Of a stretch of 64,000 bases of DNA, positions 12,121-50,273 are shown piece by piece. The DNA is from a virus. A program made the position numbers and the translations under genes. Location of the stretch: the IMG/VR virus record IMGVR_UViG_3300045988_090087; one strand, 5' to 3'. Position 1 is the first letter of the stretch; each line of letters starts with the position of its first letter. Below the pieces are notes generated by a model. That model was not told the origin of the DNA. It worked only from the letters and a program-made list of their open reading frames with translations, and ran no database searches.

Positions 12121-12192
12121 GGCACTATCGTCTAGCTGGTTAGGACGTAACTTTTCAAAGTTAAAAGGCGATTTCGAGCATCGCTAGTGCTA
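12121..12192 (+). tRNA. tRNA-Glu-like (TTC) with irregular anticodon arm
   Basis: Glu-type D arm TCGTCTAGCTGGTTAGGAC. The anticodon arm is TAAC-TTTTCAAA-GTTA (4 bp with an 8-nt loop, or 5 bp with a 6-nt loop). T arm GCGAT-TTCGAGC-ATCGC. Confidence 0.6.
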
Positions 12193-12271
12193 CTCTTCCG
12201 TATTTAAAAAACTAATACGATTAATGTTTAAAATATAAAGTCAGCGGACTTTATAACGTTAAAGAGTTGTT

Positions 12272-13586: not shown

Positions 13587-13642
13587 TTTATTTGAAAAAT
13601 AAGAATACCAACCCCTATAAATTACATGTTGGTTTTTCCCAA

Positions 13643-13674
13643 ATATTGTTGGCAACTAGCAGATAATTAGTTGC
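13643..13674 (+). promoter_or_regulatory. 32-nt leader element (copy 2), 5 nt upstream of tRNA-Leu
   Basis: Identical to 11028-11059. Confidence 0.4.
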
Positions 13675-13679
13675 TTTAT

Positions 13680-14290
13680 CGCTTAGTGGTGAAACTGGGA
13701 TACACGAGGGACTTTTGGAACACCAGTAATGGTGAATTTGAGTGCTCTATTAGAAATAATAGAAGTAGAATCTCCCTAATTAAACAAGTTAATTACTAAT
13801 TGTAAAAAGGTTAGCATCTGTGTAAGAAGCAGAGTAATGATTATAGAAGCAGTATTCAGAAATCTAATTAACTTGCGACAGAAGCCTCACTTATGGTGAC
13901 ATAGGTTTTGGTGGTGACGAGCTAAATTGTGATAGAACGCTAATCTATCTTAAATGTAAATTGGAGTGTTACAGCATAAATGTGTAGAGACTATAGAGGA
14001 GATACCTAAGTTAATTAAAAGGAATGGTTTAGACTTCATCCTTAGTAATAAGGTTATAATAGTAATGCATTATGTAAAAAAGGAGACGCTCATTGAGAGA
14101 GGTAAAACCTAATTCCTTACTTCGAAGTTAATTGATAAGGTAATAAAATAGTCCAGACTACAATAACTTATAGAGGCAGAAATATTGGTGTAATTTAGCA
14201 TTGCTGTAAGTTAGCTTGTATAAAAGCAAGTGTGGTAGGAAAATCCCTTGACCAGGAATGGTCTTACGGGTTCGAATCCCGTCTAAGCGA
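13680..14290 (+). tRNA. tRNA-Leu (TAA) interrupted by a 525-nt intron
   Basis: Exon 1 (13680-13714) ends ...AGGGA-CTT. Exon 2 (14240-14290) is AAAA-TCCCT, a long variable arm, then ACGGG-TTCGAAT-CCCGT-CTAAGCG-A. Spliced length 86 nt with loop CT-TAA-AA. Confidence 0.7.
13715..14239 (+). mobile_element. ORF-less group I-type intron between anticodon positions 34 and 35 of tRNA-Leu(UAA)
   Basis: U precedes the 5' junction and the intron ends in G (14239). An R-like CAGACTACA lies at 14154-14162. The track shows no ORF of 60 aa or more. Confidence 0.55.
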
Positions 14291-14367
14291 CATATTAATG
14301 TATTAATTTGTGAAAATTGATGAATTTCTTGTAATTACCTATATTTAGTCGAGAGTGACTAAAAGCT

Positions 14368-14399
14368 AACTCACATTGCTTGTGAAAGTAGTATGAGTT
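14368..14399 (+). repeat. Conserved-loop hairpin, copy E (variant loop)
   Basis: Loop TTGCTTGTGAAAGTAG, identical to copy F; the stem sequence differs. Confidence 0.5.
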
Positions 14400-14434
14400 T
14401 TAAATAAAATTATATAACATACTAGTATAAATTG

Positions 14435-14506
14435 AAATGTGTAGCTCAATAGCTAGAGCGTCTATCGTAGAGTAGAAGGTTGGCAGTTCAAATCTGTCCG
14501 CATTTC
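14435..14506 (+). tRNA. tRNA-like gene, anticodon undetermined (irregular anticodon arm)
   Basis: Acceptor AAATGTG/CGCATTT; D arm GCTC-AATAGCTA-GAGC; T arm GGCAG-TTCAAAT-CTGTC. The central part folds only as TCTA-TCGTAGAG-TAGA. Confidence 0.5.
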
Positions 14507-14548
14507 CTTTTTCTATCATTATTTTAATTTTTAATTTATTAAAAATAA

Positions 14549-48684: not shown

Positions 48685-48793
48685 AGGAGAACTATTTCAT
48701 AAAATCACTAGAGATGAACGACAAGAAGAGTGTCGTAAAAAATGGATAAAAAATCGTTGTGTGGGGACAATAGTTGCGTCTACTGGCTTTGGT
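48662..48793 (+). CDS. SF2 (DEAH) helicase, exon 1 (ends ...ASTGFG, inside motif I)
   Basis: Motif I is broken after GFG. The rest of the ORF (to 48967) does not resemble a helicase. Confidence 0.6.
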
Positions 48794-49142
48794 ACTGTAA
48801 AAGCGGGTCATATACCTGTTAATTACGATGCCGTTCCGATAGAGGAATCTTCGGAATTATCATCGAGCAAAATCGGTAGAAGCCCTATAGAGGGTAATAC
48901 CGAGGTAATAGAAGAAATTAAAGAATCTTCTACACCGTACAGCATAGAGAATGAAACTAATAAATAGTCTAGTTAATAGCTAGACTATTTTTATTAGAAT
49001 ATAATTTCTCCACGAGTGTTCGATACCCCAACTGAAATAAGTGGGTAAAAATTTATGCGGGACTTACTAGTAATAGTAAGAAGTATAGATAAAAAACTAT
49101 ACGATAACAAAATCGAAATCCAGAATAGGACTAAACTGTATT
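48794..49142 (+). mobile_element. ORF-less intron-like insertion (~349 nt) in the Walker A codons of the helicase; boundaries approximate
   Basis: Removing it restores GGT-AAA-ACA-GTG (GFGKTVLKHF...LIIVPT). Blocks 48996-49005 and 49084-49110 match the AAA+ intron. No G precedes the inferred 3' junction. Confidence 0.5.
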
Positions 49143-50273
49143 AAAACAGTGTTAAAACACTTTCCACAATATCGAGTACTAATAATTGTGCCAACAGAAA
49201 CTTTACAAAAACAATGGTGTGGTCATATAGATTCTAATGGGCTAGGATTAAGTTGTGATGTACAAATAATAAACACTGTAATAAAACATCCTGCCAAATA
49301 TGATCTTTTAGTACTGGATGAAGCGCATAGATATGCAGCTGAGACTTTTGTAAGATTATTTGAAGTAGTAAAATACCAATTTATCTTAGGTCTTACAGCT
49401 ACTTTCGAGCGTCTTGATGGTAGGGATAAAATATTAGCAAAATACTGCCCAGTAATTGATACTATTGATATTAATACTTGTCTTGCAAATGGTTGGGTTA
49501 GTCCATATAAAGAATATCTAGTCTTAGTAAATGTTGATGATTTAGAAGAATATGAAAAAATAAATAAAGAATTCATTTCTCATTTTGAATTCTTCGGATT
49601 CTCTTGGGAGTTAGTTAATAAATTAGCTGGTCCTATGGGTTGGCGAAATAAGCTACTCCTAAGAGATTCTATGTGTAGTGATCCTAATAAAAAGTCTGAA
49701 GTATTACAAAGTATAAATTATCATGCTATCAGATTTTGGTCTACTATGCATGAGAAAAAAGCTTTCATAAATAATCATCCAAAGAAAATTGAAATAGTAA
49801 AGAAAATTATAGAAGCTAGAAAGGATAAAAAAATAATAACTTTTGCTAATAATATTAAAATGGCAGAAAAAATTCCTAATGCTACTGTATATTCTAGTAG
49901 AACTTCTAAGAAAAGAAGTGCTACAGCTATTGAAGATTTTAACTCTGGAAAGGTAACTCTATTATCTACAGTAAAAAAAGCTGATGAAGGACTTGATGTA
50001 AAAGGTCTTTCTGTAGCTATTATATTTGGATTAGATAGTTCAACTACTAGAGCTTGTCAACGGAGAGGAAGATCAATCCGCTTTGAAAAAGGTAAGACAG
50101 CAGAAATATTCAATATAGTATTAAATAGAACTCAAGAAACTAAGTGGTTTTATGATTCTCATAAGGGAGATTCTTTTATAACTATAGACGAATCAGAATT
50201 GGATAAAGTATTACAAGGTAAAGACTTTACCCCAGGTGAAAAGATAGTTCCTAAATTTGATTTTAGATTCTGA
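49143..50273 (+). CDS. SF2 (DEAH) helicase, exon 2
   Basis: LIIVPT (Ia), LVLDEAHRY (II), GLTATFER (III), QRRGRSIR (VI). Confidence 0.75.
   Translation, partial: KTVLKHFPQYRVLIIVPTETLQKQWCGHIDSNGLGLSCDVQIINTVIKHPAKYDLLVLDEAHRYAAETFVRLFEVVKYQFILGLTATFERLDGRDKILAKYCPVIDTIDINTCLANGWVSPYKEYLVLVNVDDLEEYEKINKEFISHFEFFGFSWELVNKLAGPMGWRNKLLLRDSMCSDPNKKSEVLQSINYHAIRFWSTMHEKKAFINNHPKKIEIVKKIIEARKDKKIITFANNIKMAEKIPNATVYSSRTSKKRSATAIEDFNSGKVTLLSTVKKADEGLDVKGLSVAIIFGLDSSTTRACQRRGRSIRFEKGKTAEIFNIVLNRTQETKWFYDSHKGDSFITIDESELDKVLQGKDFTPGEKIVPKFDFRF

Follow-up and report, generated by a model that had tools for sequence, protein, structure and literature searches.

A probable group I intron of the classical tRNA-Leu(UAA) lineage, without an open reading frame, in the tRNA-Leu gene of a gut phage

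The classical group I intron of cyanobacterial and plastid tRNA-Leu(UAA) genes, of subgroup IC3 and known as 'Leu.3Ug', is 218–247 nucleotides (nt) long in cyanobacteria and interrupts the anticodon loop between U34 and A35; bacteria have four classical IC3 types, of which Leu.3Ug is one (Williams 2020, bioRxiv 10.1101/2020.01.27.920355). Self-splicing introns of phages, such as those of T4 td, nrdB and sunY and those of crAss-like phages, reside in protein genes, and the crAss-like ones were recognised through the endonuclease open reading frames (ORFs) that they encode (Yutin et al. 2021, PMC7886860). For Lak megaphages, passages in the main text of Devoto et al. 2019 (PMC6784885) report tRNA introns found by the eukaryote mode of tRNAscan, naming tRNA-Tyr(GTA) and tRNA-Thr(TGT) and calling the introns 'enigmatic', with no class given although Rfam was tried. 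Our literature search found no description of group I introns in phage tRNA genes. Here we analysed a window of 64,000 nt from the virus record IMGVR_UViG_3300045988_090087, in which positions 13680–14290 very probably constitute, to judge from their sequence, a phage tRNA-Leu(UAA) gene split at U34/A35 by a group I intron of 525 nt that holds no ORF and belongs to the classical IC3 lineage. Unlike the introns of phage protein genes, it lies in a tRNA gene and offers no endonuclease ORF by which to recognise it; like them, it is predicted to be self-splicing. The gene and its insert divide as follows.

13680–13714, + strand: tRNA-Leu(UAA) 5′ exon, with acceptor 5′ strand CGCTTAG, D arm GTG/CAC, anticodon stem 5′ strand AGGGA and then CTT (C32, U33, U34); from sequence and ARAGORN on the spliced product
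13715–14239, + strand: predicted group I (IC3-like) intron, 525 nt, ORF-less; from homologues in tRNA-Leu, tRNA-Lys and primase genes, matches to the covariance model R1 (below) and covariation
13737–13743, + strand: putative internal guide sequence UUUGAGU; from sequence and a compensatory change in tRNA-Lys copies
14239, + strand: terminal G (omega G), last base of the intron; 24 of 24 long copies end in G, and the R1 model end GUAaG aligns to GGUAGG
14240–14290, + strand: tRNA-Leu(UAA) 3′ exon, with AAAA (A35, A36, A37, A38), anticodon stem 3′ strand TCCCT, long variable arm TGACCAGGAATGGTCT, T arm ACGGG-TTCGAAT-CCCGT, acceptor 3′ strand CTAAGCG and A73; from sequence and ARAGORN

The initial annotation had described the halves of a class II phage tRNA-Leu(UAA), separated in the anticodon loop by 525 nt that follow a U, end in G, hold no ORF of 60 amino acids or more and occupy the classic cyanobacterial and plastid site, and these points were all borne out. 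Joined in silico, the halves form an 86-mer that ARAGORN called as tRNA-Leu(taa), intron removal thus restoring the interrupted tRNA; the longest ORF inside the insert encodes 48 amino acids (13966–14112), with none of at least 60 amino acids overlapping it; classical loci read GGACTT|AAA...ATG|AAAATCC at the same position; and the phage setting agrees with PHROG matches and with phage relatives in IMG/VR and GenBank. The unspliced gene was called neither by ARAGORN in default mode nor by the Rfam tRNA model. Within the window copy the splice register is ambiguous by 1 base, as CU|U...UAG|G also yields a U before the intron and a terminal G, and ARAGORN in intron mode chose that register and made a Phe(gaa) call. 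Sister copies ending in ...GTAAG|AAAAT, together with the class II tRNA body, rule out that call and fix the register at U34|A35. The spliced RNA is accordingly expected to read GGGACUU|AAAAUCCC across the junction with the exon sequences of the window tRNA itself, and CACGAGGGACTTAAAATCCCTTGACCAGGAATGGTC is the expected spliced-junction sequence carrying the exon polymorphisms of this phage. The junction ACACGAGGGACTT|AAAATCCCTTG runs uninterrupted through no fewer than 114 phage tRNA-Leu(UAA) genes that lack the intron, and at the syntenic position the 94%-identical phage MT835539 carries another tRNA-Leu(UAA), likewise without an intron; the split gene is therefore not a product of chance and its junction is fixed.

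In a blastn search with the insert, Lak megaphages and two crAss-like phages, cr116_1 and IAS virus, proved to share its conserved blocks, and scans of IMG/VR with R-block and S-block patterns returned 28 and 95 loci, respectively. A further scan with GTAGAATCTCCCTAA gave many loci that no other scan had in common and was used only for loci shared with the other scans. The long form of the intron (340–640 nt) was present in three settings, namely in tRNA-Leu(UAA) genes with differing acceptor and anticodon stems, in tRNA-Lys(UUU) genes and in a primase gene. In the window copy, GAGU of the guide (13740–13743) pairs with exon ACUU (13711–13714) to form P1, including the wobble pair U13714–G13740 typical of a group I 5′ splice site, and UUU (13737–13739) pairs with AAA of the 3′ exon (14240–14242) to form P10. 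In the tRNA-Lys copies (loci L008 and L030) the guide UAAGAGUG lies opposite the exons CACUU|UUA, as compared with UUUGAGU opposite ACUU|AAA in tRNA-Leu; GAGUG then faces CACUU in P1, and UUA pairs with UAA in P10 by a compensatory change. Since the guide changes with the exons between tRNA-Leu and tRNA-Lys, P1 and P10 co-vary with the exons. Further matches between guide and exon were seen by eye, with GGAC opposite GUCU in L067 and L092 and GCC opposite GGU in the D-loop intron of Lak phages.

The primase copies allowed the splice sites to be placed against intron-less genes. An ORF-less intron of the same family splits the DnaG-type DNA primase gene of cr116_1 (L002, 2992–3560), IAS virus (L003) and the loci L018, L020, L029 and L033 at the site CUCUU|AAAAUUUACC (target RNA sequence around it, ACUCUUAAAAUUUACC), which has CUU|AAAAU in common with the tRNA-Leu anticodon loop. 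The junctions read CTCTT|AAACTT...GTAGG|AAAATTTACC, and with the intron removed (CTCTT|...GTAGG|AAAAT) the sequence again reads ...KEGKVTLKIYQPF..., matching the uninterrupted primases of cr128_1 and crAss001. These read ...KEGK(V/I)T-LKIYQPF..., and the motif TLKIYQPF and the reading frame are both restored in cr116_1, where GenBank annotates the two halves as separate coding sequences. An alternative 5′ splice site after AAACTT (L002 2997) was ruled out by the intron-less primases, whose 2-residue gap sets the site after CTCTT (2991).

The bridge to recognised group I introns is formed by compact introns (~200–250 nt) in many phage tRNAs, marked by the S-block AAATAGTCCAGACNACAA, among which L092 (56 bits), L067 (50.5 bits) and L097 (45.3 bits) match the Rfam model RF00028 (Intron_gpI). 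These RF00028-positive introns share with the window intron GACGAGCUAAAU, UAAAUGUGUAGAGACUAU and AAAUAGUCCAGACYACAA; in L067 the common blocks are the 12-mer GACGAGCUAAAU (P4 3′ strand and P6), UAAAUGUGUAGAGACUAU (J6/7 and P7), CCUAAG of P8, the S/P9 block and the GURGUAxG end. P7, J6/7 and J8/7 are identical to those of the RF00028-positive relatives. We mapped the helices of the window intron from the RF00028 alignment of L067, which assigns P3, P4, P5, P6, the R and S strands and P8, and projected them onto A3, an alignment of 24 distinct long copies including the window (long set). As plain MAFFT alignments misplaced the register of P2, P4 and P6 between subtypes, a register-consistent subset, A2 (compact set), and a model search were used: the covariance model R1 was built from the 14 compact introns of A2 with canonical P4, zero long-type copies and the P3–P9 structure. 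The predicted elements of the fold are the following.

13721–13734, + strand: distal hairpin in the P1 loop, CACC-AGUAAU-GGUG (CCUU/AAGG in L009, UACC/GGUG in L006; recovered in the minimum-free-energy fold)
13747–13762, + strand: P2 hairpin with a GAAA tetraloop at 13753–13756 (covariation in the long set)
13770–13775, + strand: P3 5′ strand AUCUCC (pairs with GGAGAU, 13998–14003)
13786–13874, + strand: peripheral stem-loop of 89 nt between J3/4 and P4 (10-base-pair stem, 13786–13795 with 13865–13874)
13876–13919, + strand: P4–P5 domain (RF00028 alignment of L067; covariation)
13921–13983, + strand: P6, distal part expanded (P6 co-varies in compact copies)
13984–13994, + strand: R element, J6/7 and P7 5′ strand, GUAGAGACUAU (invariant in 75 of 75 family members; fits the Rfam consensus ...AGACUA)
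14004–14141, + strand: long P8 arm, 138 nt (covariation; 3 of 4 pairs co-vary in the compact set)
14148–14154, + strand: S element, P7 3′ strand AUAGUCC (100% paired with R; fits the Rfam consensus AUAGUC)
14155–14236, + strand: P9 domain (covariation; R1 alignment ends at 14239)

Covariation supports P2–P9, including the P3/P7 pseudoknot of the conserved core. For the compact set, 90.7% of cells are paired as compared with 73.6% after shuffling and 34–39% after sliding, with 31 of 48 pairs changing on both sides; the long set gave 93.6% as against 30–41% slid, and 21 pairs changing on both sides. In P2 of the long set the outer pairs exchange CG/UA and UA/CG and the third GC/AU, and by eye the helix reads CUAUGA/UCAUAG, UUAUAA/UUAUAA or UCAGAG/CUCUGA. 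P3 is unchanged among long copies and co-varies in the wider family (GUUGG/CCAAC, UGUGC/GCACA, UUCCCC/GGGGA), with both sides changing in 5 of 5 pairs of the compact set and swaps between UA, CG and GC across 75 family members. The stem inserted between J3/4 and P4, which has no counterpart in Lak and compact copies, is 97% paired by cells in the long set, its five outermost pairs being paired in 24–25 of 25 with GC/UA/CG swaps at the third. P4 consists of CGACA (13876–13880) and UGACG (13915–13919) with one A–A mismatch, followed by J4/5 GAA, P5 GCC/GGU and P5a, a hairpin at 13890–13905 with a GUGA loop. The P4 segments of L067 in the RF00028 alignment, UCGACG/CGACGA, gave the same A–A mismatch when paired by eye, and the innermost P4 pair among 75 family members is AU in 34, GC in 25 and CG in 5. 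An alternative P4, built as GAAGCC/GGCUUAC, failed in copies with GAAACC. P6 opens with the pairs G13921–U13983 and C13922–G13982, carries an internal hairpin at 13931–13949 and reads by eye GAAC/GUUC, GAAACU/AGUUUC and GAAUGAUA/UAUCAUUC among the copies; its closing pairs 13928–13930/13971–13973 are less certain.

In the core, G13987 and G13989–U13994 pair with 14148–14154 and leave A13988 bulged (GUAG-A-GACUAU), as expected of a guanosine-binding P7, which is invariant in the compact set as in the wider family. The R-like element CAGACTACA singled out by the initial annotation exists at 14155–14163, but it lies 3′ of S, directly after it, and was rejected for that reason: it comprises J7/9 and the 5′ strand of P9, and R itself is GUAGAGACUAU. 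P9 follows J7/9 AG, with ACUAC (14157–14161) paired to GUGGU (14232–14236) around P9a (14165–14212) and the hairpin P9b (14214–14231), and its middle pair is UA in 34, CG in 33 and UG in 8 of 75 family members. In IC3 introns a GAAA tetraloop in L2 docks into an 11-nt receptor in P8, a peripheral contact known from Azoarcus. Possible docking motifs, read only from the sequence, are present in the window as L2 GAAA and as the tetraloop-receptor-like P8 base ACC/GGU, which carries CCUAAG (14005–14010) with UAAGG (14136–14140), the canonical CCUAAG...UAUGG being found in sister copies. The tRNA-Ile(CAU) IC3 intron of Azoarcus, whose structure is known, presumably has the same set of features (J6/7–P7 GGUGUAGAGACUA, S AUAGUCCAG, GAAA L2 and the P8 receptor CCUAAG...UAUGG), a likeness that we take as a lead rather than a test; it presumably differs in the tRNA, in the site and in its length of 205 nt.

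Searched against the whole 64-kb window, R1 matched 14092–14194 (E = 1.6e-4) and 13911–14052 (E = 1.1e-3). With filters off, one match (37.3 bits, E = 1e-9) covered 14092–14239 and stopped precisely on the terminal G, and another (24.4 bits, E = 2e-6) covered 13879–14052. The same model gave 112–117 bits for the commonest compact phage type, which is RF00028-negative, 88–92 bits for chromosomal tRNA-Leu introns of Bacteroidales and 44–45 bits for the Lak copies, and only 19.4 bits for an ordinary, canonical non-tRNA group I intron of cr116_1 (L002 6002–6270) that RF00028 scores at 80.8 bits. Authentic cyanobacterial tRNA-Leu(UAA) introns, retrieved by the Taberlet 'g' primer motif plus GCAGAGACTC, aligned over the full length of the model (positions 1–178) with 45–73 bits. 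Kinship with these introns, which the initial annotation had proposed to examine, is thus supported at the level of the shared model R1. They have the insertion site of the window intron (CUU|...G|AAAA) and its order of helices (P2 with a GAAA loop, P3, P4–P6, P7, P8 and P9 with two hairpins), and their 5′ start and guide AAAAAAUUGAGCG is the same as that of Lak, AAAAAAUUUGAGUGC. They differ from the 525-nt window copy in length, in lacking its extra stem-loops in the P1 loop, J3/4–P4, P6, P8 and P9, in residing in a cyanobacterium or plastid instead of a gut phage, and in their RF00028 scores (74–95 bits, none for the window). These likenesses support placing the window intron, as far as sequence allows, in the lineage of the classical bacterial and plastid tRNA-Leu(UAA) IC3 intron, on the strength of a shared model that does not separate descent from convergence.

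Compact relatives reside in bacterial chromosomes. An S-block scan of GTDB representative genomes gave 112 matches, 82 of them real family members, of which ~75 lie at the same tRNA-Leu(UAA) site in Bacteroidales genomes and metagenome-assembled genomes, including the 3.3-Mb chromosome OZ007033.1 and contigs of 260–660 kb. The other ~30 of the 112 (Formosa, Pedobacter, Nocardia, a cyanobacterium and others) have no R block, and those inspected look like chance matches. Compact introns at U34/A35 occupy loci L170–L277, for example L244 (OZ007033.1, 5029–5239), L203 and L187, with R1 scores of 88–92 bits, in Prevotellaceae, Cryptobacteroides, Rikenellaceae, Paludibacteraceae and others. Compact Bacteroidales introns share with the window copy the site, P3, the J4/5–P5–GUGA hairpin, R, P8 (CCUAAA/CAUGG), S, P9 and the GURGUAxG end. 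At ~200–250 nt they lack its peripheral insertions, their P4 is degenerate (CAAACX/Y′GGCUU) where the window keeps the canonical CGACA/UGACG, and some hold an HNH ORF in the P1 loop, which the window copy does not. Because many chromosomal tRNA-Leu(UAA) genes of Bacteroidales contain the compact form, we regard the phage copies as expanded derivatives, and the window copy reads as an enlarged derivative of the compact core with insertions in the P1 loop, J3/4–P4, P6, P8 and P9. The Bacteroidales carrying compact introns are likely hosts of crAss-like and Lak phages.

The tRNA-Leu(UAA) genes of Lak-B and Lak-C hold homologues of the window intron. That of Lak-B1 (L001, MK250020.1, 1153–1900) contains two group I introns, as does that of Lak-C1 (L004). 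We know of no case of a group I intron in a tRNA D loop; the first of the two lies there (309 nt, 1173–1481; GGT|AAAGTGTTTGCC...TTTTTG|AGACAC), scores 33.8–35.4 bits with R1 and has a guide, UUUGCC, that fits GGU|AGA. The second lies in the anticodon loop (348 nt, 1497–1844), separated from the first by a 15-nt exon, and the doubly spliced sequence was called as tRNA-Leu(taa) by ARAGORN. The 340–348-nt Lak tRNA-Leu intron is not mentioned in the main-text passages of PMC6784885 on these introns.

Several further features were observed among the relatives. Other interrupted phage tRNAs include Lys(UUU), Arg(UCU) and apparent CUA/UUA suppressors (L083, L041, L049, L061, L063, L067, L092 and others), of which L083, CGGTCTCT|...AAG|AAAACCGT, is an example; ARAGORN registers for split relatives are unreliable by one base. 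Some compact relatives (L036, L037, L076, L080, L083, L089, L215 and L244) carry in the P1 loop, between the 5′ splice site and the guide, an HNH-like ORF with CPNCH, likely a homing endonuclease, and the window copy has none. In L010–L014, L021, L025 and L028 an insertion of ~90 nt in P9 includes a tRNA-like T arm, GAGGGTTCGAATCCCTT, and is missing from the window copy; it recalls a Lak 'intron that may encode a tRNA', as a passage of PMC6784885 words it.

Taken together, the proposed group I type agrees with the passing of RF00028 by compact relatives, the R1 matches, the covariation of P1 and P10 with the exons and the covariation of P2–P9. Homology, architecture, covariation and in-silico restoration of the exons are thus shown, and from them we infer actual, unaided splicing. 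In the predicted mechanism, the pre-tRNA would fold such that the guide UUUGAGU (13737–13743) pairs with exon ACUU in P1, with the wobble pair U34–G13740 at the splice site. The P3–P8 core, with its P7 guanosine pocket formed by R (13984–13994) and S (14148–14154), would then bind free guanosine triphosphate (GTP), which would attack after U34. Terminal G14239 would subsequently take the place of GTP while AAA of the 3′ exon pairs with UUU of the guide in P10, and ligation of the exons would yield the 86-nt tRNA-Leu(UAA).

A number of observations weigh against this assignment. The large insertions break the R1 match in the window into two pieces; P1 is not extended by Watson–Crick pairs on its intron side, where UUG faces UUU; one base is substituted in the P8 receptor motif (UAAGG, not UAUGG); the 89-nt stem-loop occupies, at the J3/4–P4 junction, what is to our knowledge an unusual place for a group I insertion; and the minimum-free-energy fold of the intron has a z-score of −1.39, a value also judged uninformative. 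The Infernal scan with the Rfam group I model that the initial annotation had suggested was negative, as RF00028 had no match in the window at its gathering score, nor in 13600–14400 (801 nt) at E ≤ 10, and it likewise gave nothing on the Lak, crAss or commonest compact type (5 + 15 + 1 homologous loci). RF00028 also missed 5 of 5 Bacteroidales chromosomal tRNA-Leu introns tested (no match at E ≤ 0.01), so that its silence on the window reflects the sensitivity of the model, not a missing fold; bacterial sequences were absent from the Rfam seed (Williams 2020, bioRxiv 10.1101/2020.01.27.920355).

We considered whether splicing might depend on a phage or host maturase or RNA chaperone, perhaps timing the release of tRNA-Leu during infection, and regard such dependence as unlikely, though it deserves some weight. 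The window copy is more than twice the size of its compact ancestors and has insertions in unusual places, the commonest compact type has a degenerate P4, and in some relatives the P1 loop codes for an HNH protein. The window copy itself, however, has no ORF of at least 60 amino acids, and it contains tetraloop and receptor motifs that would stabilise the fold unaided by protein (GAAA in L2, CCUAAG/UAAGG in P8, GUGA in L5a). The IC3 tRNA introns of Anabaena and Azoarcus self-splice, which also argues for unaided splicing.

Quite improbable, in our view, is a decayed intron inactivated by its insertions, with the tRNA a pseudogene and the phage relying on a host tRNA-Leu(UAA). The negative RF00028 result, the weak intron-side P1, the receptor substitution and the modest z-score would fit decay, as would the use of a different, intron-less tRNA-Leu(UAA) by the close relative MT835539. 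Against decay, all core helices are intact and both exons undamaged, P7, J6/7 and J8/7 are those of RF00028-positive relatives, and ~24 distinct long copies across phage lineages keep their helices by compensatory changes, inserted stems included. The primase copies moreover interrupt a conserved replication gene of crAss-like phages, and in the absence of splicing that gene would be disrupted. An element of another kind (a group II intron, a bulge-helix-bulge tRNA intron, a DNA transposon or a miniature inverted-repeat element) is very remote: no Rfam family was found for the insert, and passages of PMC6784885 left the Lak introns unclassed by Rfam, but the R/S core, the P3/P7 pseudoknot, the U-1 and terminal-G ends and the exon-covarying guide are all there, inspection of the junctions by eye revealed neither terminal inverted repeats nor target duplications, the group II consensus 5′ GUGYG is missing from the start of the insert, in which we saw no helix resembling domain V (no group II model was run), and position 34/35 is not the 37/38 of bulge-helix-bulge introns, whose motif was not seen by eye at the junctions.

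With the ORF-less group I intron as the preferred reading, the gut phage would carry a classical-lineage intron that peripheral insertions have brought to more than twice the usual size and that the standard model does not see. Phage tRNA genes with long introns escape ARAGORN, the Rfam tRNA model and Rfam Intron_gpI alike; since the split genes are missed by all three, the tRNA repertoires of gut phages, stop-recoding phages included, are underestimated, and the insert passes for intergenic DNA without explanation. Of the Lak tRNA introns, called 'enigmatic' in a passage of the 2019 paper (PMC6784885), at least the tRNA-Leu one can now be assigned to group I and the classical tRNA-Leu lineage. 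The family links host chromosomes and phages, and an intron that occupies both a tRNA gene and a similar-looking target within a protein gene provides a natural case bearing on the spread of ORF-less group I introns. Tentatively, and with the odds somewhat against it, we can envisage an Rfam-invisible IC3 branch circulating between Bacteroidales chromosomes and phages (crAss-like, Lak and others), which would have colonised several phage tRNA types, apparently CUA/UUA suppressors and even a tRNA D loop, and jumped into the primase gene at CUU|AAAAU, a mimic of the anticodon loop of tRNA-Leu. If so, the look-alike site would be the signature expected of guide-directed transposition by reverse splicing, and the large ORF-less expansions in phages could control the timing of phage tRNA maturation.

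The surroundings of the gene agree with its assignment to a phage. PHROG matches in the window comprise a helicase, a DnaB-like helicase, a primase and exonucleases, the window is 94% identical to a faecal 'Bacteriophage sp.' record, and near-identical copies of the split gene are found on IMG/VR viral contigs of 98–159 kb; by these sequence comparisons the window is DNA of a gut phage. Directly upstream of the tRNA-Leu gene lies an inverted repeat, GCAACTAGCAGA(T/C)AATTAGTTGC (window 13647–13679; L283 1330–1362), which is kept in a relative with an intron-less gene and is possibly a promoter or processing signal. ARAGORN reported two tRNA-like genes with two-base 'anticodons' (tc, ta) at 12121–12193 and 14435–14507 of the window, the former called as tRNA by Rfam (43.7 bits) and the latter not. 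A ResIII/DEAD-type helicase gene also looks interrupted at 48690–49160, its Walker A motif ...ASTGFG ending at ~48798 and KTLSTI... resuming at ~49154; an R1 match within this region (48858–49000, 19.3 bits) looks spurious, as its 'S' is a terminator-like hairpin and no fitting terminal G follows. Other structured RNAs were detected on the same phage contigs as the relatives, namely Hatchet (103.5 bits), a RAGATH-1 hammerhead (73.3 bits), skipping-rope and cow-rumen-4, the loci of these RNAs being L045 11311–11434, L061 1110–1213, L041 4440–4520 and L099 786–851.

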